A stretch of DNA of 64,000 nt from Acidobacteriota bacterium (GTDB lineage: Bacteria; Acidobacteriota; UBA6911; RPQK01; CBDAPI01): contig CBDCBX010000021.1 of the NCBI GenBank assembly GCA_965214465.1, forward strand, positions 943,197 through 1,007,196, given 5' to 3'. A program made the translations under genes and the position numbers. The notes beneath the pieces were generated by a model. That model was not told where the DNA came from and searched no databases. It saw only the letters and a list, made by a program, of their open reading frames with translations. Of this stretch, positions 3,228 to 54,925 are shown in pieces. Within the stretch, counting starts at the first letter, position 1. Every line of letters starts with the position of its first letter.

Positions 3228-4136
3228 TTGATGATCACACGGTCACATCTCACACCCCGCTTGACTGTTTTCACCTCTTCCGTCTATCCCGACATTGTCC
3301 GCATCTGGAACGACTGCATTCGAAGCTCGCTGCCTGCAGAGGAGATTTGCGTGGAGGTCTTCTTCGACTCATCTTCAGACCGCCTTAACGACAGTATGCT
3401 TCCAGGTGCGACCATCTTGCGGAGAAATCGTAGGTGCCGGGATTTCCACGATGCGTATAACGAGGCTCTCGCGCGTGCCGCAACACCCTACCTCGCCTTC
3501 GTCGACACAGACGTTTTTTGGCTGTCGTCAGCCGTGTGGCCCCGCGCGCTCAAAGAACTCGAGCTCAACGAGGTGGCCGCTGTATCGTGTGTCTCTCGGA
3601 CAAACCGCGAAATTCCAGGGACATTTGCGGTGATTATGAAGACGGATGTCTATCGCCGGATCCTGGCTGAGGTTCCCGGTGGCTTCTATCCCGCGTTGGA
3701 GGGAATCGCTCCGGGAATAGCGCCAGAGCAGTGGAAACGATTCGATACCGGTGATCGGGCAGCCCGGGCCGTGGTGGAGGCCGGTTACGAAATCCGCCTG
3801 CTGAACCTGGATCAGCAAGGCGCGTTCGCCCGCTTCCATGGGCTTACACTCACGCGCCGGGCCTTGGAATGGATCGGCCCCGAAAACTTCCTCAAGGTAG
3901 CCGGCGACAGTTCCTACCATTGGACAGGGCTGGCGGGAAATGCGATCCTCAAGAAACTCCACGACCGCATCTATCCAGATGCCGGGTCCTTCGACTTCCC
4001 TTTTTCTCCCAGCTATGCTTGGCGCACGGCTTTGGGACATGGACGCACCACCATTCGTCGCTTGAAGATGCTGGGGCAACTCGCTCATGCGTCGCGCCGC
4101 ATAGAGCGTCGTGTTCGCACCCGGGACTTCCCATGA
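3228..4136 (+). CDS. DxD-motif nucleotide-sugar-transferase-like protein, paralog A
   Basis: A hydrophobic stretch is followed by D-T-D (AFVDTDVFW). No TM segments. Shares ordered motifs with the 6588..7598 protein (DxD, AAVS, DTGDRAA/PGDCAAISL, ARFHG/ADFHG). The stop overlaps the next start (ATGA at 4133-4136). Confidence 0.5.
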   Translation: MMITRSHLTPRLTVFTSSVYPDIVRIWNDCIRSSLPAEEICVEVFFDSSSDRLNDSMLPGATILRRNRRCRDFHDAYNEALARAATPYLAFVDTDVFWLSSAVWPRALKELELNEVAAVSCVSRTNREIPGTFAVIMKTDVYRRILAEVPGGFYPALEGIAPGIAPEQWKRFDTGDRAARAVVEAGYEIRLLNLDQQGAFARFHGLTLTRRALEWIGPENFLKVAGDSSYHWTGLAGNAILKKLHDRIYPDAGSFDFPFSPSYAWRTALGHGRTTIRRLKMLGQLAHASRRIERRVRTRDFP

Positions 4137-6307
4137 TTTTCCTCATCAACACAAAATCCACGCAGCCGTTCTGGCGACGCTTTCCGCTGTCGGTGATGGC
4201 CCTCGGTGCGGCCCTGCCACCGGAGGTGTCGTGGGAGATTTGGGACGGCAACAAGCCGGAACCGGATTTCGACAAACGACTGGTTGCCCGGGTTACGGCC
4301 GCGCAAAAAACGCCTGATCCCGTTACCCTTCTAGCCTTTAGTGTGATGCCGGGACCGCAACTTGCAAGCGCCGCCAGATTGTCCAGGTTGCTGAAGGCGC
4401 GTTTCCCGGAGATACCGATCGTATGGGGTGGCTATTTCCCCAGCCTGTATCCGAAACCTGTACTCAAGGCTCCCTATGTCGACTGGGTCATTCGCGGACA
4501 AGGGGAACGGACGCTGGCAGAGTTGCTGGAAGTCCTGAAGGGCCGGTGTGATGCTGCAAGGGTAGCCGGCCTGGCCTTCCGCAACGGCGGCGGCCATCGG
4601 ATCAACGAGGAGAGAGCCTGGACGGGTCCGAACGATTTTCCCTCTCCCCCCTACGACAGAATCGACGTGGATGGCTATTTAGGCCCGACTGCGTTGGGCC
4701 GCAGGAGCGGAGTCTATCAGGCCTCGATTGGTTGTCCGTACAAATGCAGTTTCTGCGGCGTGATCTCCGTATATGGCGGCGGCGAGAGGTTCGAGGATCC
4801 CGGCCGAACCGCTTCCAACCTCGACTATCTTGCCAAACGGCACGGAATGGATTCAGTGCACTTCTATGACAACAATTTCTTCCTCAGAGAATCGCACGCT
4901 GAGGAACTGTGCGAGCGACTGACCCCACTGCGCCTCAATTGGTGGTGTGAAACGCGGATCGACGGGATGTTGAGGTTCTCGGATGCAACCTGGAAAAAAA
5001 TTGAGAGGTCCGGTGCCCGCATGATTTTCTTTGGCGCCGAGTCCGGTTCCGACGCCGCGCTGCGGGCGATGTCGAAGAACCTCACCACGGCGCAGACCCT
5101 TGAGATCGCCCGGCGCCTGGCGCATACCACCATGGTCCCCGAATTCTCGTTTATGTTGGGAGGACCAGATGATCCGGAAGAGGAGATCTCGGCGACGTTC
5201 GACTTGATTCGTAAACTCAAACAGATTGATTGCCGCTCCGAAATTGTCTTTCATTACTACACTCCAATGCCGCGTGCGAATGGACTGGGGGAACAAGTCA
5301 GCTCGCCGGACGGGACGCCCGAGTCGATCGAAGAGTGGTGCGAACCGGACTGGGTCGAGTGGATGACCTTCGAGAAGCCGCGAACTGCATGGATGAATCG
5401 CCGTCTGTGGGATCGTGTCACCAATTTTCAATTGGTCCTGGAGAGCCGTTATCCTTCTATGCACTCTTCACGGATGAGTGGCTTGAGCGGCAAGCTCTTG
5501 GGGCGCATGGCACGGCGACGCTGGGATGAGGGGCGCTTCGAGAGACCGGTACTACTGCGTGTCGCGCGCAAATTGGCGCGTTTCGCTCCGAAAGACCCGC
5601 AGGCCTACGGCCATCTACGACCACCGCGTGAGGAGGAAAGAACCCTGTCGCCCCGCCAGGGCTATTGGCTGTGGGCCGCGACCTATGAGGGCCCCAACGG
5701 GATGACGCATCTCGATGATCTCGCGGTCAAGCGACTCTCACCCGGGAGTTTCAGCCGTCTCCTCGACGCAGGTTGCGGGACTGGCTGGCGCTTACCTGCA
5801 GCGGAGATGGGCTCGAGCATCGGCCTTGATATCGCGACCGAAATGCTGGCGATCGGCAAAGCCCGCGGTGAGACACGCTTACTCAACGCCGATGTCCGGG
5901 CACTGCCCTTCCAAAACGGTGAATTCGATCTGCTCTGGTGTCGTTTAGTGCTTTCGCATCTCGTGGACGCGGGGCAAGCCTACCTCGAACTGGGTCGTAC
6001 GGCAGCAACCGGGGCACCTTTGATCGTTACCGACATGCACTCAGACGCGATTCAGGCGGGATTCAAGACGACCTTCAAGGACCGTTCCGGCAGGACACGG
6101 TTCATCCAGATCCACGAGCGCACGATCGATGACCATGCACGCCTGGCCGCCGACGCTGGGTTTGAGCTCAGAGATACCGTGGAAAGTGCAATTGGGCCGG
6201 AGATCCGACGCTTCTTCGAAGATGCGGGCGAGCGGCATCTCTATGAGCGTCACCAGGGTCACAAGGTATTGCTGGCGATGAGATTTGTGAAGCGAGGGGC
6301 GTTGTGA
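4133..6307 (+). CDS. Fusion of a B12-binding radical SAM (class B) domain with a C-terminal class I SAM-dependent methyltransferase
   Basis: N-terminal Rossmann-like cobalamin-binding region (IPIVWGGYFPSLYP). Radical SAM CxxxCxxC motif (GCPYKCSFCGV). C-terminal methyltransferase motif I (LLDAGCGTGWRL) and post-I/II region (LPFQNGEFDLLWCRLVLSHL). The ORF-track start at 3869 is rejected in favour of the in-frame ATG at 4133, which overlaps the upstream stop. Confidence 0.8.
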   Translation: MIFLINTKSTQPFWRRFPLSVMALGAALPPEVSWEIWDGNKPEPDFDKRLVARVTAAQKTPDPVTLLAFSVMPGPQLASAARLSRLLKARFPEIPIVWGGYFPSLYPKPVLKAPYVDWVIRGQGERTLAELLEVLKGRCDAARVAGLAFRNGGGHRINEERAWTGPNDFPSPPYDRIDVDGYLGPTALGRRSGVYQASIGCPYKCSFCGVISVYGGGERFEDPGRTASNLDYLAKRHGMDSVHFYDNNFFLRESHAEELCERLTPLRLNWWCETRIDGMLRFSDATWKKIERSGARMIFFGAESGSDAALRAMSKNLTTAQTLEIARRLAHTTMVPEFSFMLGGPDDPEEEISATFDLIRKLKQIDCRSEIVFHYYTPMPRANGLGEQVSSPDGTPESIEEWCEPDWVEWMTFEKPRTAWMNRRLWDRVTNFQLVLESRYPSMHSSRMSGLSGKLLGRMARRRWDEGRFERPVLLRVARKLARFAPKDPQAYGHLRPPREEERTLSPRQGYWLWAATYEGPNGMTHLDDLAVKRLSPGSFSRLLDAGCGTGWRLPAAEMGSSIGLDIATEMLAIGKARGETRLLNADVRALPFQNGEFDLLWCRLVLSHLVDAGQAYLELGRTAATGAPLIVTDMHSDAIQAGFKTTFKDRSGRTRFIQIHERTIDDHARLAADAGFELRDTVESAIGPEIRRFFEDAGERHLYERHQGHKVLLAMRFVKRGAL

Positions 6308-6591
6308 GCGAAGATTTACGTAGCGAGACGGTGCTGGTTGAGGGGGAGTTTCGACGCGGCGAGAAATTTGGACCGGAAGCCGTTAACAAGGGGGCGATCC
6401 TGATGGACTGCGAGTGGGATGGCGGCATCTTTGAATCGGGCACAATGGTGGGTGGTATCTTTCGCTCCGGCATTTTCCGTGGCGGAACGGTCTATGGAAC
6501 CGTGTGGTTGGGAGGAGAGTGGATTGACGGCCGCTGGGAGGCCGGCTTCGATCAGACGGGGCGCTATCGGCCGAGGACCGATCATCCGTGA
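6304..6591 (+). CDS. Small Gly-rich repeat protein (95 aa), translationally coupled
   Basis: GTG start overlaps the upstream stop (GTGA at 6304-6307). The stop overlaps the next GTG start (6588-6591). Contains G-G-x-F/W repeats (GGIFESGTMVGGIFRSGIFRGGTVYGTVWLGGEWIDGRWEAG). Confidence 0.4.
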   Translation: MSEDLRSETVLVEGEFRRGEKFGPEAVNKGAILMDCEWDGGIFESGTMVGGIFRSGIFRGGTVYGTVWLGGEWIDGRWEAGFDQTGRYRPRTDHP

Positions 6592-7598
6592 GCGAAGCGA
6601 ACCATCCCCCGCGACTGCTCATCGCGAGCGCGCACCGCTACCCGGACCTGGCGCGTCTATGGTATCGGTACGTTTCGCGCGAAGTGGTCCCGGCATTCCG
6701 CGCCAAGGGCATGGAGGTCGAGACCCGGATCTTTCGGGACGCCAACGTAGAGGCCTTCAAGGCAGAACGCTTTTCCGAGGCTTTCCTCGACGCTCCGCGT
6801 GCAAAGGCCCGCGATTTCCTCGAATTCTACGACTCGGCGCTCGGACTTGACCACGACTTTATTCTATTCCTGGATGCTGATCTCTTCATCCTCGACGGAG
6901 AATGGGCCGCCGACTTCATCGACCGGTTCGAAGACCCCGATTTGGCAGCGGTTTCTCTGCTGAGAAGGTCGTCTCAGCCGGGGTTGTACGCTCTTCTTCT
7001 GCGAATAGCAAACTATCGGGCACTCCCGGAACCGGTCCTCGCTTGCCGCTATGACGGCCTCTCAGGGGAAGGACCCTGGGTCAATCATCAGCCGGGAGAT
7101 TGCGCCGCTATTAGCCTGCGCGCGGCGGGCCAGAGGATACTCGATGTCCCAGCGCAGGAGGCGCAAAGTCGACTCGCCGATTTCCATGGCACAACAGTCG
7201 TCAGAGCCTCGCGTGATCTCTTTGGCGTGTTCATCGGAGACCGCTTCGATCTCCTGGGCGCCGATCAGCGGTACTTCGCCATGAGCGCCTACGATAACGT
7301 ACTCCTGGGTGCGTTCTACCGGACACTCTACGGAGAACCGTTCGCCGCAGGCACGGGCGGAAAACACCTCAGCGGAAGCGTGACAGCGGAGTCGCTGCGT
7401 GAGAATCTGGCGCGCTGTCGCAGCTTGCGTTTGCTCCTGCGACTGACCAGCTACTTCGAGCGCTCAAAGCGGGCGCTGGCACGACTGGCGGCATACGAGG
7501 ATCTTCCCGTGCGGCCGCCGCGTGTTTTCTCGTTTGAGCGTGAGTTCATCTTCAGAGCAGCGATAATGATCCTGCCAAAACGCTGGACCCGGTGCTGA
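6588..7598 (+). CDS. DxD-motif nucleotide-sugar-transferase-like protein, paralog B
   Basis: FILFLDADLFILDG motif. Collinear similarity to the 3228..4136 product. Confidence 0.5.
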   Translation: MSEANHPPRLLIASAHRYPDLARLWYRYVSREVVPAFRAKGMEVETRIFRDANVEAFKAERFSEAFLDAPRAKARDFLEFYDSALGLDHDFILFLDADLFILDGEWAADFIDRFEDPDLAAVSLLRRSSQPGLYALLLRIANYRALPEPVLACRYDGLSGEGPWVNHQPGDCAAISLRAAGQRILDVPAQEAQSRLADFHGTTVVRASRDLFGVFIGDRFDLLGADQRYFAMSAYDNVLLGAFYRTLYGEPFAAGTGGKHLSGSVTAESLRENLARCRSLRLLLRLTSYFERSKRALARLAAYEDLPVRPPRVFSFEREFIFRAAIMILPKRWTRC

Positions 7599-7599
7599 C

Positions 7600-8571
7600 A
7601 TGGGTGTCCTGGCGCAGGTTAAGAAGTCTGTTAAGAGGCGGGCCTTCGGACACATCGAATTTGGGCTGTTTGGTCCTGTCGCTCTGCGTGACCCACAACA
7701 GGAGATCCGCGTTTGGCTCTGTGGCCTCGGGCCTCCCCGGGACGTGACCTATCGAAACGTCATAGCCAACTCCCGGCCCCACACGATCGGAATTGGCCTC
7801 GACGGTGCAGATCAGAGAATCGAATCATCGGGTGCCGGGGTTATGCTCAAGTTCGAGGAGCGTACAGGCCGCCAGCGCCCGCTCGGAGAAATCGACCTTG
7901 AATGGAAGGAGTCCATCGATTTGTCTGACGGGCAGGTGCTGCTTTTTCGCTCGCGGAGGTGCCGCAACTTTTGTCTGCCGAAGACGCTGCTATGGAGGCA
8001 ATACATGGGCTGGGCCTATCATCGCTGGCGTACGAGAAACCGCGACGACCCCGATCATCGGTTGTCCACGCGGGAAGTGCATGCCATGTTTGCATTCTAC
8101 ATTTGTCCGCGGCCGGTATTTCTGGTCAGCGTTGCAGACGGGGACAAGTCCAATATCTTTCCAATGGACCTTCTCGGCGTCATCGGTGCCGAGCGCTTCT
8201 CGCTGGCGTTCAAATGCACCAGTTCGGCCGTGCCCCTCTTGCAACGCTCGCGCCGCGCAGCGCTCGCTTCCGTACCCATTGAGCGAGCGGCTCTCGTCTA
8301 TCGATTAGGGCCCAATCACCGCAAAGCGGATTTCGATTGGGCTGAAGTCCCTTGCGGAGTGCTTGCGTCTCCGGCGTTCGGCTTGCCTGTTCCCGATTTT
8401 TCCCTGCGAGTCCGGGACGTGGAGGTTTCGGAGATCAGGAAACTGGGAAGTCACCAGTTCTTCATCTGCCGAATTGTCGAAGACCAGCGCCTGGCCGACG
8501 GGGAAGAGTTTTTTGAATCCCACTCCTTCTACCAGGAATGGAAGCAACGCACGCGTGACCGCTTCCGCTAA
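7600..8571 (+). CDS. Flavin-reductase-like (split-barrel) domain protein, possibly a tandem duplication
   Basis: The C-terminal half (VHAMFAFYICPRPVFLVSVADGDKSNIFPMDLLGVIG...SLAFKCTSSAVPLL...HQFFICRIVED) resembles the flavin reductase-like fold. Starts 2 nt after the upstream stop. Confidence 0.4.
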   Translation: MGVLAQVKKSVKRRAFGHIEFGLFGPVALRDPQQEIRVWLCGLGPPRDVTYRNVIANSRPHTIGIGLDGADQRIESSGAGVMLKFEERTGRQRPLGEIDLEWKESIDLSDGQVLLFRSRRCRNFCLPKTLLWRQYMGWAYHRWRTRNRDDPDHRLSTREVHAMFAFYICPRPVFLVSVADGDKSNIFPMDLLGVIGAERFSLAFKCTSSAVPLLQRSRRAALASVPIERAALVYRLGPNHRKADFDWAEVPCGVLASPAFGLPVPDFSLRVRDVEVSEIRKLGSHQFFICRIVEDQRLADGEEFFESHSFYQEWKQRTRDRFR

Positions 8572-9368
8572 TGATTACGTCATCCACAGCATTTGATGCC
8601 GCCGCCCACGACTATGACAGGGAGTTTTCGCATACGACGATTGGCCGGTATCTGCGCCGCGCGGTGCATGAGGAACTGGCCTGGGTCGGCTCCGGGGCGC
8701 GCCTTCTCGATCTTGGTGCGGGCACCGGCGAGGATGCGCTGTGGGCCGTTTCGCGGGGAAGCGACGTCGCCATAGTGGACGCGTCCGAGGCTATGCTGGC
8801 AAACGCCCGTGACAAGGCTCGCAAGGAAGGCGTGGACAGCCGGATTGAATTCCATCAACTGGATCTGAACGCCTGTGACCTCTCGCAAAGGTTCGATGCG
8901 GACAGCTTTGAGGGCGTGCTGTTGAACTTCGGCGTCTACAACTGCATTGAAGACGGTCCGCGCCTGGCGCGGACTCTAGCCCGGCTGACCAAGCAAGGCG
9001 GGTATTTGACACTGGTTGTGATGAGTCCGGTATGCCCGTGGGAGATCATCTGGCATCTGCTGCGGCTGTGTCCGCGTGACGCGTTCAGGCGCCTGAGGCG
9101 CAATCCAACGGTGCGGATAAAAGCTGGACCAGATGTTTCTGTTCGCTACCCGACGCCGCGGGCGGTGCGCCGCGAATTCGAGGGAGCATTTGACTTCGTG
9201 TCCCTGCGGGGTGTGGGAGCCTGTATCCCGCCTCCTTATCTGAATCGGATATTCGAAAGGCATCCCGGTATGCTGCGCCGGCTGTCGCGCTGTGAAGGAG
9301 CCATCTGCCACCGGTTTCCATGGACGTGGATGAATGACCACTACCTGATGTCGATGGTACGCCGTTGA
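8571..9368 (+). CDS. Class I SAM-dependent methyltransferase
   Basis: Motif I (LLDLGAGTGEDA), an acidic residue after beta-2 (VAIVDASEAM), and motif II-like (GVLLNFGVYNCIED). Overlaps the upstream stop (TAATG). Confidence 0.7.
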   Translation: MITSSTAFDAAAHDYDREFSHTTIGRYLRRAVHEELAWVGSGARLLDLGAGTGEDALWAVSRGSDVAIVDASEAMLANARDKARKEGVDSRIEFHQLDLNACDLSQRFDADSFEGVLLNFGVYNCIEDGPRLARTLARLTKQGGYLTLVVMSPVCPWEIIWHLLRLCPRDAFRRLRRNPTVRIKAGPDVSVRYPTPRAVRREFEGAFDFVSLRGVGACIPPPYLNRIFERHPGMLRRLSRCEGAICHRFPWTWMNDHYLMSMVRR

Positions 9369-9406
9369 TGGGCATGAGTGGAACGCTTGCCAAGTGAAGA
9401 TGAAAC

Positions 9407-10075
9407 CTACTCCGGATCGACACTCTCAGTTAGGCAGTTCGGTAGTGACGCCACCAGGCCCACGACGACCCAAATCATGACATAGGTGGGGGTAAAGGCC
9501 AGAAAGTGATCGAAGAGACCGTGGATCAAGAAAGCGGCGGTAGCTGCGCTGATCCCTAAGAAAAGCGAAAGCTCAGCGTCTCCCATTTTGCGCCATTGGG
9601 CACCCAGGATTGAAGTGACCCGCCAGACAAACCATAAGAAAAGGCCGCCGCCGACGAGCCCCGTCGTAGCAAAGAACTCCAGATACATGTTGTTGGCGTG
9701 AAGATCGCGCCTCCACCCCTTGAGGTCGAGATAGTTTCCGTAGAGCAGGCGAAAATTGTCTGGTCCCACACCCAGAAGGGGCCGGTCGAGTAGCATCCGC
9801 AGGGCACCTCGCCAAAGAGTAGGACGGGCCAGATCAAGCCTCGGTGTGGGGGCCGGGCCCAAAGGGATAAGCGGTGGTTCTACTCTTCTCTCCGCGCTCC
9901 CCTCGGCAGCGTAGATTTTGACCAGGGAGTGAGCTAAAGGGGCACCTGCCGTACTGAACCATAGACGGTGCTCCTGAACCAGGTCCCAGGCCAAGATGTA
10001 TTCTCCCGGATGTGGCGGAGCCAATATCCGAGCCTGGACCTGCAGGCTTTCTGTCGGTTCTACAGTCTGTCCTAA
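9407..10075 (-). pseudogene. O-antigen ligase / Wzy_C family gene, 3' portion separated from its 5' portion by IS copy 1
   Basis: Wzy_C hallmarks (LGVGPDNFRLLYGNYLDL...RRDLHANNMYLEFFATTGLVGGGLFLWFVW, conserved His in an HxNxY context). Abuts the left IS end at 10076. Confidence 0.55.
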
Positions 10076-11732
10076 CCCGGATTATGCATGAGATCTGAAT
10101 CCGAGTGAGATTTGGGCCCATAAAAAGAGCCGTAGCTCTCTGATATAAAAGGGTTTACACAAACAAGACCCTAACCAGGAGCTACGGCAATGTTAAGAGC
10201 AGTCTGCCAGAATACCCTGCCATTTCACAGCCACAGAAAGATCACGGCGCGTTTTGATGGGGGGAGCCTCACTTCCGACGCAGGATGGTTGTTGTTTGGA
10301 TCGGTGGATCGGCAACATCGGCTCTGCGAGGGCTTCAGTTCGTGTATTTCGGAGAGTCGAGACCAACGCTACATTCGTCATGATCTGTTGAAGTTGATCC
10401 GACAACGAGTCTTGCAGATCGTGGCCGGCTACGAAGACTGTAATGACGCCGATACGCTGCGCTCGGATCCGATGCTCAAAACCGTCTGTGATCAGTTGCC
10501 GGAGAGCGATCCGGATTTGGCCACGCAGCCGACTTTCTCCCGCTTGGAGAACTCCGTCACCAGGAAGGATCTGATGCGTTTGAGCCAGTGGCTGCTAGGC
10601 CGTTATGTGCGCTCCCTGAAGAAAAGACGTCCCGGTAAGATCATCCTGGATCTGGACAGTACCGACGACCATACCCACGGCCAGCAGGAGTTCTCCTTCT
10701 ACCACGGGTATTACCGAAGCCACATTCTGCATCCTTTGCTGATCTTCGATGCCGACACGGGAGACCTGGTGTGTGCCGTGTTGAGACCTGGCAACAAGGG
10801 AGCTGCCTCTCACATCGTGCCCATTCTGAAGCGAGTCGTGGAGGCTATCCGACAAGGAGTGGGGACGGATGTCGAGATTGAGATTCGGGCCGACAGCGGC
10901 TTTGCCACGCCGCGGCTCTACGAGTTCTGTGAGGCTGAAGAGAATCAACTCCAGTATGTCATTGGGTTAAGTCGAAACCCTCGCCTGCAGCGAGTGGTCG
11001 AGCCCCTGCTGGATTCGACTCGGGAAAGGTTCCTTGAGCTGGAGGAAAAACAGCGTCAGTTTGACGAGTTTCTTTATCGAGCCAACAGCTGGGATCGATC
11101 TCGTCGCGTCATCGTCAAAGTGGAGGTCGATCAGCGCGGGATCAATCGTCGCTTTGTGGTCACCAACCGGGACGATCTCTGCTCCCAATCACTTTATGAC
11201 CACTACACAAACCGAGGACAGACCGAAAACTTCATCAAGGCCTTCAAGAATCATCTGAGCATGGACCGACTCAGCTGTCATCGATTCCTGGCCAATCAGT
11301 TTCGACTCCTTCTGCATGCCCTGGCTTACCAGATGTTCGTGCGCCTGCGCGACTATCTGCACGGGACCCCCTGGCACAAGCTCGAAATCGAAACCTTACG
11401 TCGTCGTGTCCTCAAGATCGGGGCCCGGATCCGACAAACCACTCGACGCATCTGGGTCCATCTTTCCTCAGCCTTTCCCGAACAACCCCTCTTCCACCTC
11501 GTCTTGAGTCGCCTCAACTCCAGCTAGCCTCTCCCAGCTCCCAGCTCCCCGAAAAACCGCTTCCGATACTCACCCAGGCCCAGATCTGTCTGAAATTCAC
11601 TCCCCAACCACTTCAAACGCCTCGCCAACCGATATTCTTCGCAAATCCGCCTGTCACACCTGTCCGCTTTCGAGTTGAGCCACTTCTCGAGTCGTTTTTC
11701 AACTCCGGACTACGGTTCTTGCATAATCCGGG
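10076..11732 (+). mobile_element. IS element copy 1 (IS4/IS5 superfamily, 1657 bp)
   Basis: Terminal inverted repeats CCCGGATTATGCA (left 10076-, right ends 11732). 4-bp direct repeat CTAA at 10072-10075 and 11733-11736. Carries a single transposase ORF. Two further copies lie at 41355 and 52467. Confidence 0.85.
10190..11527 (+). CDS. DDE transposase (DDE_Tnp_1-type with YREK signature)
   Basis: 445 aa. The signature Y-x2-R-x3-E-x6-K is present (YTNRGQTENFIKAFK). AGGAG sits 8 nt upstream of the ATG. The product is 99-100% identical to the one encoded at 41469..42806. Confidence 0.85.
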   Translation: MLRAVCQNTLPFHSHRKITARFDGGSLTSDAGWLLFGSVDRQHRLCEGFSSCISESRDQRYIRHDLLKLIRQRVLQIVAGYEDCNDADTLRSDPMLKTVCDQLPESDPDLATQPTFSRLENSVTRKDLMRLSQWLLGRYVRSLKKRRPGKIILDLDSTDDHTHGQQEFSFYHGYYRSHILHPLLIFDADTGDLVCAVLRPGNKGAASHIVPILKRVVEAIRQGVGTDVEIEIRADSGFATPRLYEFCEAEENQLQYVIGLSRNPRLQRVVEPLLDSTRERFLELEEKQRQFDEFLYRANSWDRSRRVIVKVEVDQRGINRRFVVTNRDDLCSQSLYDHYTNRGQTENFIKAFKNHLSMDRLSCHRFLANQFRLLLHALAYQMFVRLRDYLHGTPWHKLEIETLRRRVLKIGARIRQTTRRIWVHLSSAFPEQPLFHLVLSRLNSS

Positions 11733-12816
11733 CTAATGGGGTCCGCACTCCCTCAAAGACCAGAGTCTGCTCTCCCTTCCGATCAAGCCAGTGATAGGAG
11801 AGTGCAAAAGCATTCTCTCCCTCCGATCGCCAGGGAGCCAGGCCGGTGTTCTTCACTCGGACTCGGACGAGGTTGTCGCTTCCGGGGGCAAGTTCTAGTT
11901 CTCCCGGAGCGTCATACTCGACCTGATACCCCGGGCTGGAGTCGATGCCCGTGAGTCTCAACCAGAACAACGGATTGCGCAGCAAACTCAATCCCAACAG
12001 AACTACCACCATTCCGGATATCCCTAGCAGCAGGCGAAGGCGGTCGTCAGCACCCTTACGAATCAGCCAAAAACCAGCGGCGAGAAGCGGCAAGATAAGA
12101 AGGAGAATCAGGCCAGCGCGAGTGAGCGTCACGATCGTCCCGGCCGCGATAAGCGTTGAGGAAAGAAAGAGTGCCGATCTCTGCCAGCGCCGAACCTGGC
12201 ACAGTAAAAGACCGATGGTCAATCCAAAGGCCAGTTCCAGGTACATGGAGGTGATGGTAGGATATTGAAGGGTCGAAGTGGCTCGCACCTGGTTCTTTAC
12301 AAATCCAGTGCCTGGGCGAAAAGCTTGCAGAAAGTCCAGCACCCACGCCACTTCGAAAGATTCCAGCACTCCTAGAGCAGCGACCACACAGGCGACAAGG
12401 GTGACGGCCACCATCAAGGCGACGAGTCGACGCCGGTGTGTGATGGTTTGCACTACCATGAAAAAGATAAGGACACCCGTTAGATAGCGGGCTGTGAACT
12501 GCAGGGAGTTCGCACGATGGGCTGAGGCCAAAAGCGAGGAGACAACCATCCATGCAAGCAGGCAGAGAATCGGCGAGGCCAACCTGGTTCGGACGACACG
12601 AGGTGGTTGGCCAACAGCGCGGGAGCCACTCCACGCGAGCAGACTGATGAGGATGACGAGTTCGAGGTTGGTTACCGCCTGCCAGGACACGGTAAAGACA
12701 GCCTCGAGTCGCTCAAAAGGGGCAGCCAGTACCAGGAGCAACAGGCCGGTATAAGGAAGTCGAGTCCGAAATGGTTTCCCTTCTCTTCTCAAATACCCGC
12801 CGGAACTCCACGGCAC
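11733..12816 (-). pseudogene. O-antigen ligase-like membrane protein, 5' portion interrupted by IS copy 1
   Basis: About 10 TM segments, then the start of a Wzy_C-like region (TIVTLTRAGLILLLILPLLAAGFWL) and a periplasmic loop. The reading frame runs into the IS right end, and the last residues are IS-encoded. Confidence 0.5.
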
Positions 12817-12888
12817 AAGAAAAGAAATTGTATCGCTATTCTCAGCCGAGTGGAAGAATCACTACGATCTGCCGAATGTTTCGGACTC

Positions 12889-12919
12889 TTGACAGGGTTC
12901 CGCGCACTCTTGCCATAAT
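12889..12919 (+). promoter_or_regulatory. Candidate sigma70-type promoter for the radical SAM gene
   Basis: TTGACA (12889-12894), a 19-nt spacer, then CATAAT (12914-12919), 18 nt upstream of the ATG at 12938. The spacer is long, so this is weak. Confidence 0.3.
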
Positions 12920-12937
12920 GAGCAAGAAATTGGGCCC

Positions 12938-14281
12938 ATGAAAGAACGAGCCGTGCTTTACAACCCGAAAGCCGAATATTACACGATGCCACTCGCCTTG
13001 CTGGCTCTGGGTTCTGCCTTGGACCCGGCCCGCTATGAGGTGGTGGTCGTTGATGGGCGTCTGGAAAAGGACCCCCTAGGAAGAGTTCTCTCGCTGCTTG
13101 ACCGGGCGATTTGTCTTGGTGTCACGGTCCTCACGGGTTTCCCTATCCAAGACGCCCTGCGTGTCAGCCGGGCTGCCAGGTCGGCTCGACCGAGTCTGCC
13201 GGTGGTATGGGGAGGATGGCATCCTTCCCTGTTTGGAACCAAGTGTCTGGAGCAAGAAGGATCGATTGGCATCACGGTTCAAGGACAGGGAGAAGAAACC
13301 TTTCAAGACATATGTCGGCGGCCGAGGGGGTTGGAGGGAGTTGCGGGTTGCTCGTTTCGTCGGGATAAGGAGATTATCCACAACCCTCCAAGGCCCCTTC
13401 GGGATGTGAACAGCTTTCCTCGTCACCGATATGAACTGTTGGATCCGGAGCACTATTTTCGCTTTAAGGGGTGGCGGCAACTGGATTATATCTCTTCAAT
13501 TGGCTGCCGATTCCGCTGTGCCTTCTGCGCCGATCCGACCATCTATGAGAGGAAGTGGTTTGGACTGGATCCGGAGCGAATTGGAGAAGAAGTCGAATTC
13601 CTATGGAAAAAATACAGATTCGAAGACTTAAACTTCCAGGACGAAACCTTCTTTACCAAGAGCACGAGAGTCACTGCAATCGCTGAAGAGTTCCTTCGCC
13701 GGAGAGTCAAAATCAGTTGGGCCGGGACACTTCGTGCCGACCAAGGCGTGCGCCTCTCTGAAGATGACTTTCGAAAGTGCAGGGAATCTGGCCTGCGGAG
13801 AGTCATGATCGGGGTCGAGTCGGGCTCTGTGGAAATGCTGAAGTGGATGAAGAAAGATATCCAGTTGACTGAAGTATTCAAGACGGCGGAGATGTGTCTT
13901 CGGCATGGTGTTGCGGCAATTTTTCCTTTTATTGTCGGTTTTCCCGATGAGCCTGAAGAGAGCGTAAACGAAACTCTTAGAGTGGCGTACCAGCTACGCT
14001 CGATGAGCCCGAATTTCGAGATTCAGATCTTCTTCTATTCGCCTTACCCTGGCTCTCCCATAACGACACACGCCGAAAAGGCCGGTTTCCCAATCCCAGA
14101 CACTCTCGAACAGTGGGCCAGGTTCGACTTTAGCAAGTGGGGACCGTGGGTCGATTCAAAGAAACGTCGCCGCGTCGAAGTCTTTCAGTTTTGCCAGCGT
14201 TTGGCCGGACGTCAGAGTTCCCTCTGGACCAGATCGATTCAGGCCCTGGCTCGCTGGCAATGCCAACGACTGATTGGCTGA
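12938..14281 (+). CDS. B12-binding domain-containing radical SAM protein (class B)
   Basis: LPVVWGGWHPSLFG cobalamin-binding-like segment. Radical SAM motif CRFRCAFCAD. Paralogous to the N-terminal two-thirds of the 4133..6307 product. Confidence 0.8.
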   Translation: MKERAVLYNPKAEYYTMPLALLALGSALDPARYEVVVVDGRLEKDPLGRVLSLLDRAICLGVTVLTGFPIQDALRVSRAARSARPSLPVVWGGWHPSLFGTKCLEQEGSIGITVQGQGEETFQDICRRPRGLEGVAGCSFRRDKEIIHNPPRPLRDVNSFPRHRYELLDPEHYFRFKGWRQLDYISSIGCRFRCAFCADPTIYERKWFGLDPERIGEEVEFLWKKYRFEDLNFQDETFFTKSTRVTAIAEEFLRRRVKISWAGTLRADQGVRLSEDDFRKCRESGLRRVMIGVESGSVEMLKWMKKDIQLTEVFKTAEMCLRHGVAAIFPFIVGFPDEPEESVNETLRVAYQLRSMSPNFEIQIFFYSPYPGSPITTHAEKAGFPIPDTLEQWARFDFSKWGPWVDSKKRRRVEVFQFCQRLAGRQSSLWTRSIQALARWQCQRLIG

Positions 14282-14398
14282 CCTGGCGGAAGGGTACCCA
14301 GGATCCCGATCGACTCTCCCTCCTGCAGCAATCAGGCCAAAGGTGGTCCAGGTCACCACGATTACAGGGGTGAATTCCTAATTTCCTTGCCTGAAACT

Positions 14399-14430
14399 TG
14401 TGGCCACAAATAAGTATAATGTGGACACAT
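14399..14430 (+). promoter_or_regulatory. Toxin-antitoxin promoter/operator. A palindrome TGTGGCCACA and a near-palindrome ATGTGGACACAT bracket a consensus -10 TATAAT.
   Basis: TGTGGCCACA at 14399-14408, TATAAT at 14415-14420, ATGTGGACACAT at 14419-14430. GAGG RBS at 14434-14437, then ATG at 14447. Confidence 0.5.
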
Positions 14431-14446
14431 TTTGAGGCATCACTTC

Positions 14447-14701
14447 ATGACCACATCTGTGAGAGAACTGAAGGACCATCTGAGCAAGTATCTTCGGCGC
14501 GTTCAGAGCGGGGAGGAGGTGATCATCACTTCTCACCGTCGGCCGGTTGCCAAACTGGTCCCCCTCTCCGGAGACGAGACAGACGACTGCCAGAGCTTTT
14601 TCGACGGTCTCCAGGATCTTCGCGCACAGTTCAATGGGGAAGTAAAAGGCACTCCACTGAGCCAGATCGTGATCGAAATGCGTGAGGAAGAGCGCGATTG
14701 A
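14447..14701 (+). CDS. Phd/YefM-family type II antitoxin
   Basis: MTTSVRELKDHLSKYLRRVQSGEEVIITSHRRPVAKLVPL is the canonical Phd/YefM N-terminus. The upstream TTG start at 14432 is rejected in favour of ATG 14447, which has an RBS. The stop overlaps the toxin start by 4 nt. Confidence 0.75.
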   Translation: MTTSVRELKDHLSKYLRRVQSGEEVIITSHRRPVAKLVPLSGDETDDCQSFFDGLQDLRAQFNGEVKGTPLSQIVIEMREEERD

Positions 14702-15132
14702 GGGTCTACCTTGACACCAGCCTGCTGGTTGCCGTCTATGTTCCGGAGAGTCTGACGGGCAAAGTCCTTCAGCTTCTCAAGGAGCCGATCATCGTTTTCG
14801 TTTCAAGTCTGGTTGAGGTCGAACTCCACTCTGCCCTGTCAAGAAAACTTCGCATGGGGGAACTCCGAGCCAGTCAATGCCGCCGCATCACGGGGTTGTT
14901 TGATCGTCACCTCCGAGAAACCCGGTACCAGCGCCTGACCATCTCACCGGCAGCGTTCACGACGGCGGCAGACTTTCTCCGTGACTTCTCGACTCCTCTG
15001 CGTACGCTGGATGCATTGCACGTGGCTTGCTCCTTTCACACCGAAACGACTCTCTTCACAGCGGACGCGACCGCGACACTGAGCAGGGCGGCTTCCCATT
15101 TCGAAGTTCCCTGCAAGTTGCTGGCATCCTGA
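14698..15132 (+). CDS. vapC: PIN-domain toxin (VapC-like)
   Basis: MRVYLDTSLLVAVY places the first PIN acidic residue at position 6. Further D/E residues are spaced as in VapC. 144 aa. Confidence 0.7.
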   Translation: MRVYLDTSLLVAVYVPESLTGKVLQLLKEPIIVFVSSLVEVELHSALSRKLRMGELRASQCRRITGLFDRHLRETRYQRLTISPAAFTTAADFLRDFSTPLRTLDALHVACSFHTETTLFTADATATLSRAASHFEVPCKLLAS

Positions 15133-15155
15133 GCAGACCTGTGAAAGAAACACAC

Positions 15156-17219
15156 ATGCTTATGAACTTCACCGCCTCCATTGTTTGTGTCATCGCCTTC
15201 CTGACCGCACTCCAGGGCCAGGAAATATCTACCGAGCGGCGCCCGATTCAGGTGGATGATCTGTTTGTGATCAAGAGAGTCGGGAATCCTCAGTTCAGCC
15301 CGGACAGCGGCTGGGTGGCCTACACGGTCAGCGGGTCGAGCCTGGAGAGTGACAGTTCCCAGACCAGCATCTGGATGGCATCCACCAGCGACGGCGCCGA
15401 GATCCGAATGACGGGCAAAGGGACCTCCGGAACCCAGCCCCGCTGGAGCCCGGACGGGAAATACCTGTCCTTTCGATCGGGACGCGCGGAAGGCGAATTC
15501 CAGGGTTCGAACCAGTCGAGCCGATCCCAGGTGTGGCTGCTGGATCGCCGGGGCGGAGAGGCCCGGCAACTCACCGACATTGCACAGGGAGTCAGCGGCC
15601 ATGAGTGGTCACCCGATGGAAGACAACTGGTGCTCCTGATCAAAGATCCAAAACCTGGTGACATTGAGAATGGAGAAAGGACCGCCGGGAAACCCGAACC
15701 CTGGGTGATCGACCGGCTGCAGTTCAAGAGAGATCGAATCGGCTACCTCGACCGGTTCCGGACACACCTGTATTTGTTTGACCTGAAGAGCGGAGAAACC
15801 CGCCAGCTCACGTTTGGTGACTACGACGACTCCGAACCCGTCTGGAGCCCCGATGGGAAGTGGATCGCCTTTGTCAGCAACCGGACCGAGGAACCCGATG
15901 CCAACAGTAATTCGGATATCTGGGTCGTCTCCACCGTGACCCGGGAGACCCGGCCCTCGCCCAGACAGATCACAACGAATCCCGGATCCGATACGAACCC
16001 GGCCTGGAGTCCGGATGGAAAGTACCTGGCTCATGTGACGATCACGCGCCCCGACCTGATCTGGTACGCAGGACGCAAGCTGGCTATCTCTCCCTTTGCC
16101 GGCGGAAGGGCTGAAATTCTGACCGCCGACCTGGACCGCAACGTGAGCCAGCCCCGCTTCGATCCCGACGGCAAAGCCATCTATTTTCGGGCCGAAGACG
16201 GCCGCGCGTATCACCTGGCCCGGCTGCAACTGGAGACCCGACAACTCACCCGGCCTGTGGGTGGCAAACGGATGGTTTCAGCCTTCACTATGAGCCCGGC
16301 TGGCCGGCTGGCAATCCTGAAGAGTGAGCCCCATCAGCCGGGGGAGGTCTTCCTGGTCAACCACCTGCCCCGCCAGCTCAGCTTCAGAAACCGGGGGCTG
16401 CTGAATCGTCTCAAGCTGGGAGAAGTCGAGGGCATTCAATTTGCCAGCCAGGATGGTACCCGGATCGAGGGGTTTGTGGTGAAGCCTCCCGACTTCGTGG
16501 AAGGTCGGCGCTATCCCACCCTGCTTCGGATCCACGGCGGACCTGTGTTTCAGTTCTTCTTTGACTTCAACTTCGAAGCCCAGTTCTTCGCCGCTCAGGG
16601 ATACCTGGTGGTCTTGGCCAATCCACGTGGCTCCTCCGGCTACGGTCAGGACTTTGCCATGGGGATCTGGCAGGCCTGGGGTCAGAAGGACTTCGAGGAT
16701 GTGATGGCCGCCGTGGATCACGCCGTCGAGAAGGGATGGGCTGATCCTGAGAGGCTGGGCGTGGGAGGATGGTCGTACGGGGGGATTCTGACCAACTATG
16801 TGATCACTCAGACGGATCGATTCAAAGCCGCGATTACGGGAGCCAGCGAGGTTCTTTACGTCGCCAACTACGGGCATGATCACTACCAGTTTCAGTGGGA
16901 AAAGGAACTGGGTCTTCCCTGGGAAAATCGTGAGCTCTGGGAGCGACTCTCCCCCTTCAACTACGTGGAGAAGATTGTGACTCCCACTCTGATCATGGGA
17001 GGCGAGAAGGACTGGAATGTCCCGATTCTCAACTCCGAGCAGCTCTATCAGGCTCTGAAACGGCTGGGTCGCGAGACGCTTCTGGTGGTCTACCCTGGAG
17101 AGTCTCATGGGGGGATTCGCCGCCCCACCTTCCTGAAGGATCGTCGCTTGAGGGCGCTGGGCTGGTACGACAAGTACCTGAAAGGGAGGCAGCCCGATAC
17201 CACGGGAGGTCACCCATGA
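15156..17219 (+). CDS. S9-family serine peptidase (prolyl oligopeptidase / acylaminoacyl-peptidase type) with an N-terminal beta-propeller
   Basis: Signal peptide (MLMNFTASIVCVIAFLTALQG). Repeated SPDG(K/R) propeller blades. Catalytic nucleophile elbow GGWSYGG. C-terminal alpha/beta hydrolase region with ...GESHGG. Confidence 0.85.
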   Translation: MLMNFTASIVCVIAFLTALQGQEISTERRPIQVDDLFVIKRVGNPQFSPDSGWVAYTVSGSSLESDSSQTSIWMASTSDGAEIRMTGKGTSGTQPRWSPDGKYLSFRSGRAEGEFQGSNQSSRSQVWLLDRRGGEARQLTDIAQGVSGHEWSPDGRQLVLLIKDPKPGDIENGERTAGKPEPWVIDRLQFKRDRIGYLDRFRTHLYLFDLKSGETRQLTFGDYDDSEPVWSPDGKWIAFVSNRTEEPDANSNSDIWVVSTVTRETRPSPRQITTNPGSDTNPAWSPDGKYLAHVTITRPDLIWYAGRKLAISPFAGGRAEILTADLDRNVSQPRFDPDGKAIYFRAEDGRAYHLARLQLETRQLTRPVGGKRMVSAFTMSPAGRLAILKSEPHQPGEVFLVNHLPRQLSFRNRGLLNRLKLGEVEGIQFASQDGTRIEGFVVKPPDFVEGRRYPTLLRIHGGPVFQFFFDFNFEAQFFAAQGYLVVLANPRGSSGYGQDFAMGIWQAWGQKDFEDVMAAVDHAVEKGWADPERLGVGGWSYGGILTNYVITQTDRFKAAITGASEVLYVANYGHDHYQFQWEKELGLPWENRELWERLSPFNYVEKIVTPTLIMGGEKDWNVPILNSEQLYQALKRLGRETLLVVYPGESHGGIRRPTFLKDRRLRALGWYDKYLKGRQPDTTGGHP

Positions 17220-17495
17220 ACACACCCCTGCTCCAGAGCAGATACCGGAGAACAGTGATGACCTGGCTCGGCTCCTGCGGCTGGCACTCGACAAAGTGGC
17301 CTTTCTCCCCTTCGGGCTGCTCGTCGATCGGTGGCGATGGAAGGTGTTCTCCGGCGAAACACCTCCTGATCGGCACATCCGGATCTGGTGGGAACTCGTG
17401 GAGAAGTATGAAGCAGTGGCTGGACGCGCAAAACAAGGGTCAGACCTGCGGCTGGTAGCTTGCAGCGTCACCCCCCATCCGTTACCCTTTCGGCG

Positions 17496-17975
17496 ATGCC
17501 GAGACGCCCCAGCCTTCGCTACTGCATTCTTTTTCTGCTGGCATCGACCTGGCTGTTCTTGATTGTTTCCCCATCTCTGCTGGCCGCAAGATATCCTCTG
17601 CCGGTCGGTGCCGTTTATTACTTTTTCTCTCAAGTGTGCCGCCAGATCCCAGACCGGAGCTTTCACTGGGCGGGGGCTCAAATGGCCGTCTGTCACCGCT
17701 GCCTGGGTATTTACCTGGGCTTCTGGCTCGGAGTCCTGTGCTGGCCCGGCCTCGGACGTCTGGGCCAACGACTGCTCGACCGGCCACGGCTGATCCTGCT
17801 TCCGGCCGCGCTGCTGCTCCTGAACGCCCTGACGCCGAACTCACCCTTTGATCGCGTGGTCACGGGCCTGCTCGCTGGTTTTCCAGTGGCCCTGTTTGTG
17901 TGGATTGGATTTGAACAGCTCTTGGCCGTCCCCCCAGGATCCGAATCTCGAGGAGAATCGCATGTACTCAGCTAA
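17496..17975 (+). CDS. DUF2085-family membrane protein
   Basis: The conserved CHRCLGIY motif sits between TM helices. Contains four TM segments. Confidence 0.5.
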   Translation: MPRRPSLRYCILFLLASTWLFLIVSPSLLAARYPLPVGAVYYFFSQVCRQIPDRSFHWAGAQMAVCHRCLGIYLGFWLGVLCWPGLGRLGQRLLDRPRLILLPAALLLLNALTPNSPFDRVVTGLLAGFPVALFVWIGFEQLLAVPPGSESRGESHVLS

Positions 17976-18621
17976 ACCCAGCATGTCCGTTCCCGTAATT
18001 GCCGGCGGCCTTTTTCTAGGCGTCCTTTCGGTTGTTCCACCCATCAGTTTCCTCAACTGTGCCTGCTGCATCCTGGTCATCGGCGGGGGGCTACTGGCCT
18101 CTTATCTCTACATGAAGGGCTACCCACTCGATTCGCCCCGCGTCACCTACGGGGACGGAGCCCTTCTGGGACTTCTGGCCGGCCTGGTTGGCGCCGTTGT
18201 GGGCACGGTGGTTTCGATTCCCATCAACCTGATGATGAACCTCGGCTTCTCCAGCGAGGAAGCGCTCGAGCATCTCCGAGACACGCCCGACATTCCGCCC
18301 CAGTTGATTCAGTTTCTGGAGTCGATGATGGCGGGGGGCGTGACGGTTGTCGGGATCCTCTTTTCGCTGTTGTCCCAGGGCATCGTCTTTTCGATCTTCG
18401 GCATGGTCGGGGCGATGCTGGGCGTGGCCATCTTCGGGCCCAAAGGAGGTGCAGAACCAGGATCCGTGCCACCGGCTCCCAGCATGAGTCCCTACCAGAC
18501 GACTCTGCCTCCTCAGGCGCCTCCGCAGCCCGAATCTCCGAGTCAGCCTGCTCCGCCGGCGCCGCATCCGAAACCTCCGGAACAGGGCGGTTCGGATGGT
18601 GGAGGATCGGGACCCACGTAG
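17962..18621 (+). CDS. Membrane protein with a Pro-rich C-terminal tail, hypothetical
   Basis: Four hydrophobic helices, including one with an NCACC motif. The C-terminus is low complexity (PPAPSMSPYQTTLPPQAPPQPESPSQPAPPAPHPKPPEQGG). Confidence 0.4.
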   Translation: MYSAKPSMSVPVIAGGLFLGVLSVVPPISFLNCACCILVIGGGLLASYLYMKGYPLDSPRVTYGDGALLGLLAGLVGAVVGTVVSIPINLMMNLGFSSEEALEHLRDTPDIPPQLIQFLESMMAGGVTVVGILFSLLSQGIVFSIFGMVGAMLGVAIFGPKGGAEPGSVPPAPSMSPYQTTLPPQAPPQPESPSQPAPPAPHPKPPEQGGSDGGGSGPT

Positions 18622-18632
18622 GAGGACCCTCC

Positions 18633-19343
18633 GTGGTCCGATCCCCATCGGATCGCCGCATGGAAGCGGCTGCCACCCTGAGTCTCCGTCAATTTCCGGA
18701 TTCGTTCGAGCTGCATTGCCCCCGGTGCTCTCCTCACACTCCTTGCTTACGAATGTGGTCTGGATCACGTCGGGTTTCCAGCAATACCCCCGATAATGGG
18801 CGCTATCGAAGCAGAGAGGGTCTGCAGATGCTTGAATCCCGAGGCCCATCAAACGCTCGCAGAAGTGGAAGGATGAGGATGATCGATCGGAAACTGCTTC
18901 TTCGGCTGGCAGTCTACCTGCAGCGCGAGGAGGGAAGCGTAACGCTGGGGCAGTTCAACCCGAACCGAGACTTCCAGCTTGCTAACAGCCGCATCACTTC
19001 GCTTGTTCTGCTGGCCTCAGCCCTGATCGTCCTCTTGGGACTCGCTCTGAATATGTTGACAGGACAGCCCATGCCGGTTCCGGTAGCGATAGACGCATCA
19101 CCTTTTGCCACTGTGAAAATCCAGGATGCCGACCAGGCGATCGTCTTGAGCGGGGAGACTCCTCTTGTCGCCCCCCTGCCTCCAGGAGACTACTCGATCC
19201 AGTTCACTTACGGATCGCGTACGGTGACAAAGCTCATTCAGGTAAGCCATCGCGGGGCCCCCGGGGTTCGACACGAATTCTTTGATAGTGAAGATATTGA
19301 GGCTCTGGTTGGACGCTTCCTTGGCGATGGAGTTCAGCGCTGA
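18633..19343 (+). CDS. Hypothetical protein with a single TM anchor
   Basis: Long ORF with one hydrophobic segment (ITSLVLLASALIVLLGLAL). The start codon is uncertain. No known motif. Confidence 0.3.
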   Translation: MVRSPSDRRMEAAATLSLRQFPDSFELHCPRCSPHTPCLRMWSGSRRVSSNTPDNGRYRSREGLQMLESRGPSNARRSGRMRMIDRKLLLRLAVYLQREEGSVTLGQFNPNRDFQLANSRITSLVLLASALIVLLGLALNMLTGQPMPVPVAIDASPFATVKIQDADQAIVLSGETPLVAPLPPGDYSIQFTYGSRTVTKLIQVSHRGAPGVRHEFFDSEDIEALVGRFLGDGVQR

Positions 19344-50849: not shown

Positions 50850-50853
50850 AGAG

Positions 50854-54916: not shown

Positions 54917-54925
54917 GCTTCCTGC

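Follow-up and report, generated by a model that had tools for sequence, protein, structure and literature searches.

A stretch of 64,000 nucleotides from an Acidobacteriota contig, called the window here, carries one insertion sequence (IS) three times, and two of the copies lie within genes for surface glycans. To which family does this element belong, and have its insertions altered the surface polysaccharide or abolished it? We favor a joint explanation, to which we would give a probability of about 0.9: the element is a new member of the IS1380 family that targets YTAR, copies 1 and 3 are recent knock-outs, copy 2 is older, and the polysaccharide was most likely lost.

Copies, ends and target duplications

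The three copies share one orientation and a size of 1.64-1.66 kb.

10072-10075 and 11733-11736: left and right target-site duplication of copy 1, CTAA
10076-11732, + strand: IS copy 1, 1657 bp, intact IS1380-family element
41351-41354 and 43005-43008: target duplication of copy 2, TTAG
41355-43004, + strand: IS copy 2, 1650 bp, transposase gene intact at 41469-42806
52464-52467 and 54105-54108: target duplication of copy 3, CTAA
52468-54104, + strand: IS copy 3, 1637 bp, ends intact, transposase gene broken

Every copy has the left end CCCGGATTATGCA and the right end TGCATAATCCGGG, which form a perfect 13-bp terminal inverted repeat (TIR). The first-pass annotation was right to describe a single insertion sequence in three copies, and the perfect 4-bp flanking repeats of the YTAR type that it reported are present at each copy (CTAA/CTAA, TTAG/TTAG and CTAA/CTAA). 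Its coordinates for the copies also stand, with the exception of the start of copy 3, which it placed at 52467; the A at that position is part of the CTAA repeat, and the copy begins at 52468. A 7-bp tandem duplication (CTCCCAG), found in copy 1 alone, lies in its 3' non-coding part at 11531-11537.

The transposase gene is represented here by that of copy 1.

10190-11527, + strand: transposase gene of copy 1, 445 aa, matching NCBIfam NF033539 and Pfam PF13701

Copies 1 and 2 encode an identical 445-aa protein, both of the two differences between their coding regions being synonymous. The proposed catalytic residues are D156, D235 and E346. The YREK signature of a DDE transposase, noted previously, was located at residues 339-353 as YTNRGQTENFIKAFK, with the spacing Y339-x2-R342-x3-E346-x6-K353. 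A 445-aa transposase had been ascribed to each copy, which is correct for copies 1 and 2. In copy 3, the loss of 1 bp near 53150 puts the sequence out of frame after about residue 189, and this copy therefore does not provide a third 445-aa gene; its further private deletions are one of 7 bp near 53781 and two, of 4 bp and 1 bp, in the 3' region. A search of solved structures found no sequence relative of the transposase.

Family assignment

The curated models place the transposase in the IS1380 family. The NCBIfam IS1380 model (NF033539, cut-off 180 bits) gives 381 bits and is covered from position 2 to position 418 of its 419, and PF13701 (cut-off 34.7 bits) gives 486 bits. The element had initially been assigned to IS4/IS5, a superfamily label that is true only in a loose sense, through the Pfam DDE_Tnp_1 domain (PF01609), which matches the transposase at 82 bits. 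That match, the YREK motif and the 4-bp YTAR duplication speak for placing the element in the IS4 family or in the IS5 family's own IS5 group, YTAR being read as a mark of the family. However, the IS4 model (NF033592), with a cut-off of 115 bits, reaches only 29, the NCBIfam search gave no match to an IS5-family model at E <= 0.01, the 1.65-kb length and 445-aa protein suit IS1380, and CTAG/CTAA flanks are also found at other IS1380 elements. We regard membership in the IS4 or IS5 family as hardly credible.

IS1380-family elements, of which IS1380, IS1247, ISPme1 and ISEcp1 are well known, are about 1.55-2.0 kb long, contain one transposase ORF and produce target duplications of 4-5 bp. IS5-group elements are about 1.0-1.5 kb long, and IS4 elements duplicate 8-13 bp. 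The element described here is 1637-1657 bp long, with one 445-aa ORF, a TIR that starts with CC and a 4-bp duplication, in keeping with IS1380. Judged from its sequence, the transposase, and with it the element, belongs to the IS1380 family and to neither IS4 nor IS5. Features in common with IS5 itself, of the IS5 group, are the 4-bp duplication at YTAR/CTAG and a catalytic domain of the DDE_Tnp_1 type. Our element differs from that group in matching none of its models, in its longer protein and overall length, and in its ends, so that the likeness is one of target choice only.

Among named elements, the nearest in PLSDB were ISAzs25 and ISAzs3 from Azospirillum sp. B510, which are IS1380-like and 39-40% identical at the amino acid level. 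They likewise have CTAG/CTAA flanks and a 4-bp duplication, and the left end of ISAzs25, CCGGGATTATGCA, nearly matches the TIR core of the present element, GGATTATGCA. The duplications of IS1247 are 5 bp long, as opposed to 4 bp here (PMC3281130). With just 39-40% identity to the named IS1380 elements found, and with an acidobacterial host, the element is a previously unnamed IS1380-family insertion sequence of uncultured Acidobacteriota, and this degree of identity makes a new IS name due. Many other contigs encode the identical transposase: in the contig collection its exact sequence is found in 67 indexed blocks, and it occurs in at least 8 places on one 1.68-Mb contig. Most of the stretches with the element, of which there are at least 66, belong to the Acidobacteriota MAG CBDBGQ01, and some Acidobacteriota genomes carry dozens of copies.

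Target choice

Perfect 4-bp repeats flank 47 of the 55 distinct copies in the window and the fetched loci, and all but three of these 47 are CTAG (27), CTAA (10) or TTAG (7). YTAR accounts for 0.19% of window positions outside the IS copies, and the probability of finding it at three of three insertions by chance is about 7e-9. This target had been taken as a sign of the IS5 group. ISAzs3 is flanked by CTAG/CTAG, ISAzs25 by CTAA/CTAG, and an IS1380 element of 38% identity in the related genome L019 by CTAG/CTAG. Because these three IS1380-family relatives, 38-40% identical to our element, have the same kind of flanks, YTAR does not discriminate between IS5 and IS1380. Four IS1380 elements with mutual identities below 40% now show this targeting, and YTAR/CTAG should therefore not be read as an IS5 signature. 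In the literature searched we found no paper tying IS1380 to a CTAG target.

The 13-bp TIRs would be recognized by the single 445-aa DDE transposase. Insertion takes place at the rare tetranucleotide YTAR, with CTAG favored over CTAA/TTAG. The 4-bp duplication probably arises by staggered joining across four target bases, followed by copying on repair.

Copy 1 and the Wzy_C-family gene

Copy 1 lies between two parts of a gene of the Wzy_C/O-antigen-ligase family.

9407-10075, - strand: 3' part of the gene, residues 362-582, including the Wzy_C match
11733-12816, - strand: 5' part of the gene, residues 1-361, rich in membrane-spanning segments

Removal in silico of the IS and one repeat leaves a continuous minus-strand ORF of 582 aa. 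The first-pass annotation had copy 1 separating a membrane-spanning 5' portion from a Wzy_C 3' portion, and this is what we observed, the division falling between residues 1-361 and 362-582. On the restored protein, Wzy_C (PF04932) scores 38.4 bits against a gathering score of 31.7. The restored protein has 277 homologues at E <= 0.001; among the 120 listed, nearly all are about 540-640 aa long with at least 90% query coverage. An intact orthologue, P0001, is 99% identical to it. The break falls within an Ig-like loop domain at residues 309-397 that resembles PF16158, with a score of 23.9 bits that is below the 28-bit cut-off. As it now stands, the 5' reading frame continues for 7 codons into the right end of the IS before a stop, giving a 368-aa fragment for which a look-up gave no recorded match. 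Copy 1 cuts the membrane protein short after residue 361 of 582, as a simple insertional knock-out.

Copy 3 and the GT4 gene

Copy 3 interrupts a gene for a GT4 glycosyltransferase.

52180-52467 (lower end approximate), - strand: GT4 gene, 3' part, from residue 271 of the restored 428 aa through the stop codon
54105-54916, - strand: GT4 gene, 5' part, encoding residues 1-270

Here too, removal of the IS and one repeat in silico gives a single minus-strand ORF, of 428 aa, and full-length homologues exist for both this protein and the restored 582-aa protein. The outcome that the first-pass annotation had named as refuting, gene halves that fail to join, was seen at neither site. An intact version (P0241), 100% identical to the restored GT4 protein, is present in four other assemblies. 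Pfam Glyco_trans_1_4 (PF13692), a GT-B group 1 domain, matches residues 233-370 at 75.5 bits, where the cut-off is 27, and the N-terminal GT4 domain (PF13439) scores 21 bits, below its cut-off of 28.5; the homologues have both domains. Copy 3 does bisect the gene, as had been proposed, but the cut lies in the C-terminal glycosyltransferase domain, after residue 270 of 428, and not between the two domains. TIGR03087 aligns with residues 3-400 in one stretch across the junction; its score is 160 bits against a threshold of 317, and for this reason we have not filed the protein as the PEP-CTERM/XrtA-system glycosyltransferase equivalog. Within this Wzy-type polysaccharide locus, the truncation likewise amounts to a simple insertional knock-out.

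Filled and empty sites

L001 has no IS and only one CTAA at the copy 1 site, and the two flank alignments to L001rc overlap by exactly those 4 bases. The copy 3 site is empty in four assemblies (L012-L015). On contig ctg471346 of ERZ25074053 (5.68 Mb), both sites are empty, with one CTAA each, and the flanks of both insertions are 99.8-99.9% identical; the intact P0001 and P0241 are encoded there. These natural empty sites on a 99.8%-identical contig prove copies 1 and 3 to be true insertions, which makes them recent, strain-specific knock-outs. At the level of sequence comparison, filled and empty sites demonstrate transposition, and for IS activity in the hard-to-culture Acidobacteriota they offer a clean natural comparison of before and after. 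When the flanks of the three copies were compared with loci on GTDB genome contigs, only an 82%-identical desaturase homologue was found, and it does not adjoin an IS.

Copy 3 has four private indels and three substitutions, although its site is empty in four near-identical assemblies. Such changes are unexpected in a fresh copy and require either a defective donor or an assembly or polishing error within the repeats. Lacking a transposase of its own, copy 3 could presumably move only with the enzyme from intact copies such as 1 and 2.

Copy 2 has the following neighbors.

40111-41067, - strand: fatty-acid desaturase gene, left of copy 2
43180-44499, + strand: Tad-family gene, right of copy 2

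Copy 2 is present at its site in three further assemblies (L016-L018) and is an older intergenic insertion common to sister strains. Outward promoters are documented in the IS1380 family (PMC9330008), and copy 2 might activate its neighbor through one, as ISEcp1 and ISPme1 of that family do. The 3' end of copy 2 faces the Tad-family gene, which begins about 175 bp downstream in the same orientation. A sigma-70 scan detected no promoter in the right end of copy 2, although the rules for Acidobacteriota promoters lie outside that consensus. We think such activation very unlikely, and we saw no sign at this element of one-ended gene mobilization or of a strong outward promoter in the style of ISEcp1 and ISPme1. 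Rfam and tRNA scans of the window detected nothing in or beside the IS copies and a single tRNA-Glu at 45078-45153.

Probable decay of the polysaccharide locus

The glycan locus that contains copy 3 has further lesions, both in the gene for the priming transferase (CoA_binding_3 and Bac_transf domains).

48499-48658: 160-bp insertion in the priming transferase gene

The second lesion is a 1-bp insertion at 48837 that causes a +1 frameshift. Both were defined by reference to four near-identical assemblies, from which they are absent. The 160-bp insert comes from the interior of a transposase gene of the IS256 type and has no target duplication. A MITE was considered and ruled out, since the insert has neither terminal repeats nor a target duplication and translates as a segment of an IS256-type transposase. 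As a fragment without a target duplication in an assembly that is probably metagenome-derived, it could be an assembly artefact.

Much of the window consists of glycan genes, so that two of three insertions in such genes are not significant alone. The ongoing IS-mediated remodelling of surface glycans that the first-pass annotation suggested is plausible. Given the additional priming-transferase lesions, multi-hit inactivation or locus decay describes the case better, and because the priming transferase is broken as well, the surface polysaccharide was most likely lost altogether rather than changed. The pattern of lesions looks like locus decay or selected loss.

Insertion sequences are well known in polysaccharide genes, examples being IS492 in Pseudoalteromonas eps, IS1301 in meningococcal siaA and IS256 in staphylococcal ica. 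As in those cases, the insertions described here are in polysaccharide biosynthesis genes, and filled-site strains hardly differ from empty-site strains in other respects. Unlike those switching systems, the present locus has several independent lesions, which point to permanent loss. Events of this type are well known, and the ecological interest of one strain losing an exopolysaccharide or O-antigen-like glycan is a local one.

The lesions could be causally linked. A block at a late step (GT4 or Wzy_C) would trap undecaprenyl-phosphate and thereby select for inactivation of the priming transferase, by the 160-bp insertion and the +1 frameshift. Suppressors of late-step blocks are well known in the Wzy-dependent pathways of other bacteria, and copy 3 and the two Bac_transf lesions occur in the same locus and are all absent from the four near-identical assemblies. 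However, one sequence cannot give the order of events; the priming enzyme may have been lost first, with the later hits then neutral, and the 160-bp insert is perhaps the artefact mentioned above. We consider a causal link unlikely.

The insertions could also have been adaptive, either because glycan loss was selected, for example in escape from phages or predators, or as phase variation by IS insertion and precise excision. In L019, the Wzy_C orthologue has been independently interrupted, 163 bp upstream of the copy 1 site, by a different IS1380 element with its own CTAG duplication. A third lineage, L088, has a Wzy_C orthologue rearranged beside IS3-like and IS5-like transposase genes, although this is a contig of 3x coverage. 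At least four separate glycan-gene lesions are present in one strain, and the flanks of the empty-site and filled-site versions differ by about 0.1-0.2%. A reversible switch fits less well, since several lesions in one pathway and a broken copy 3 transposase are better suited to irreversible decay. Adaptive insertion is possible, if doubtful. The broadest form of this idea is recurrent selection to shed surface polysaccharide, for example under attack by phages or predators. In an uncultured Acidobacteriota clade, different mobile elements would then have disrupted the Wzy_C-family gene on at least two, perhaps three, separate occasions. IS1380-family elements at rare CTAG/YTAR sites would be the agents, with further hits in a linked locus and priming-transferase lesions that relieve sequestration of the lipid carrier. 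Taken as a whole, this scenario seems rather unlikely to us. Recent knock-outs by copies 1 and 3, with the surface polysaccharide most likely lost, remain our preferred reading.

Insertional knock-outs in the window

Two surface-glycan genes of one Acidobacteriota strain have recently been knocked out by insertion of an IS1380-family element, of which the window holds three copies in the same orientation. The observation is sound, and the phenomenon is an ordinary one. Each copy opens with the perfect 13-bp terminal inverted repeat (TIR) CCCGGATTATGCA, closes with its reverse complement, and lies between perfect 4-bp direct repeats, as the first-pass annotation had described, except that the true start of the third copy is one base to the right of where it had been placed.

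Copies of the element in the window
c1, 10076-11732, 1657 bp, flanks CTAA / CTAA
c2, 41355-43004, 1650 bp, flanks TTAG / TTAG
c3, 52468-54104, 1637 bp, flanks CTAA / CTAA

In-silico excision, proposed with the original annotation, rejoins the halves into a single homologous protein at both c1 and c3. Removal of c1 and one CTAA leaves a minus-strand ORF of 582 codons whose product has a Wzy_C match of 38.4 bits, over the cut-off, in residues 443-507 and a sub-threshold match to an Ig-like loop domain at residues 309-397, within which the insertion falls (after residue 361). Of the 120 listed among its 277 homologues, nearly all have a length of about 540-640 aa and at least 90% query coverage, and one (P0001) is 99% identical, confirming that c1 interrupts a Wzy_C-family gene. 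Between the radical-SAM and tricorn-like peptidase genes of this neighbourhood is a PhdYeFM antitoxin/PIN toxin pair (window 14432-14701 and neighbours; 7565-8244 in the comparison locus L001). The corresponding interval of a related genome, L019, holds a second Wzy_C gene (443 aa), so the neighbourhood is variable between lineages.

Excision of c3 restores a 428-aa GT4 glycosyltransferase that is 100% identical to an intact protein (P0241) and aligns to TIGR03087 over residues 3-400 in one stretch spanning the junction. The gene is thus interrupted as first proposed, but the N- and C-domain halves do not lie on either side, since c3 entered the C-terminal GT domain itself, following residue 270. 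The gene belongs to a Wzy-type polysaccharide locus, which in the annotation of the syntenic locus L012 also includes the following.

Other members of the polysaccharide locus (L012 annotation)
ABC transporter pair
several GT2 and GT4 genes
second Wzy_C gene
PMT_2
CoA_binding_3/Bac_transf priming transferase
Wzz/AAA_31 chain-length regulator

A tRNA-Glu (CTC) gene (45078-45153, minus strand) lies between the GHMP-kinase end of this locus and a Tad-family gene, and may mark the locus boundary.

The priming transferase gene is also damaged in the window: four near-identical assemblies lack both the 160-bp insertion (48499-48658) and the additional C (48837) that it carries. No target duplication surrounds the insert, whose minus-strand translation corresponds to an interior segment of an IS256-type transposase and which is 100% identical to sequence within longer repeats of an Acidobacteriota metagenome-assembled genome (MAG; L027, L050). 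The insert may be an assembly artefact or filler DNA. Over the rest of the window almost all differences from the sister genome are substitutions, so the assembly shows no general tendency to indels. The glycan locus of this strain appears to be decaying, and its polysaccharide would probably be lost.

Filled and empty sites

The window is syntenic with the 5.68-Mb contig ctg471346 of ERZ25074053. In that contig the empty c1 site (L001) matches window positions 1-10075 and 11733-22695 in two alignments of 99.8% identity that overlap by just the four bases CTAA. At its empty c3 site (L012) the aligned window segments are 48659-52467 and 54104-64000 (99.9% identity), and one CTAA is left where they meet. 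The c3 site is likewise empty in three further assemblies. Both insertions are therefore strain-specific, whereas c2, which three other assemblies (ERZ25074053, ERZ21829562 and ERZ25068966) have at the same position, is an older, shared insertion. It breaks no ORF, having entered the space that separates a fatty-acid desaturase gene from a Tad-family gene transcribed divergently; a sigma-70 scan, whose consensus may not be that of Acidobacteriota, found no outward sigma-70-like promoter in its right end.

Family assignment and differences among copies

The transposase aligns to nearly the whole of the NCBIfam IS1380 profile NF033539 (381 bits, cut-off 180) and to Pfam PF13701 (486 bits). The earlier IS4/IS5 label must be abandoned: the IS4 model gives only 29 bits (cut-off 115), and the NCBIfam profile search returned no IS5 match at E <= 0.01, which together with the IS1380 score makes membership of either family very unlikely. 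The description of a YREK DDE transposase holds, with the motif Y339-x2-R342-x3-E346-x6-K353 and a match to Pfam DDE_Tnp_1 (82 bits). An element of this length with one ORF, a TIR beginning in CC and a 4-bp duplication is in keeping with IS1380. The named elements nearest to it in a plasmid collection, at 39-40% amino acid identity, both come from Azospirillum sp. B510 (ISAzs25 and ISAzs3), and judged by sequence it adds a new member to the family. We found no solved structures related to the transposase by sequence.

The 445-aa transposase is identical in c1 and c2, whose coding regions differ by two synonymous changes. A 7-bp tandem duplication in the 3' non-coding part is private to c1. The first-pass annotation had given every copy this protein, which is wrong for c3, where a 1-bp deletion and adjacent substitution shift the frame after residue ~189 and further private deletions of 7, 4 and 1 bp occur. 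Its site is empty in four near-identical assemblies, and flanking divergence (~0.05-0.2%) predicts far fewer changes than the three substitutions and four private indels that c3 carries. Possible explanations are a donor copy that was already defective or polishing errors in repeats. The defective c3 might be mobilised by transposase from intact copies.

Target choice

We collected 55 distinct full-length copies from the window and from loci with transposase or left-end matches. Perfect 4-bp repeats flank 47 of them (CTAG in 27, CTAA in 10, TTAG in 7, TTAA in none), with a weak palindromic extension, C before and G after. Neither CTAA nor TTAG is confined to one orientation of the element, so there is no orientation bias. 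Insertion would be DDE-catalysed, with a 4-bp stagger. YTAR tetramers occupy 0.19% of window positions outside the copies, and the chance of three YTAR duplications in three is ~7e-9. CTAG is about ten-fold under-represented there (21 observed in 59 kb against ~218 expected from base composition), making the preferred target scarce. The YTAR target stands, but not its proposed link to the IS5 group, because all four IS1380 elements examined share it: ISAzs3 (flanks CTAG/CTAG) and ISAzs25 (CTAA/CTAG), both <40% identical, and the L019 element (transposase 38% identical; CTAG/CTAG) resemble ours.

Related genomes

L019 (ENA ERZ28763718 ctg125597) has flanks ~90-93% identical and an empty c1 site. 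Its orthologue of the Wzy_C-family gene is broken by that different IS1380 element, which lies 163 bp upstream of the site (5964-7708; 1737 bp, 18-bp TIR CCCGCATAGATCACCGAT, CTAG duplication). In a third lineage (L088 3010-5640, ENA ERZ25074053 ctg298305) the orthologue has undergone rearrangement and partial deletion beside IS3-like and IS5-like transposase genes, although errors are possible at this contig's low 3x coverage. The sequences of these two lineages hint at recurrent loss of the gene.

Many other contigs of the contig collection carry a gene for exactly this transposase, and the left end of the element is present in several Acidobacteriota MAGs. Most of the at least 66 stretches matching it (L020-L085) come from one of these, CBDBGQ01, in which the element has greatly expanded; its subfamily is ~5% divergent from that of the window, and many of its copies equal the overall consensus. 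Several copies among these stretches abut other IS elements.
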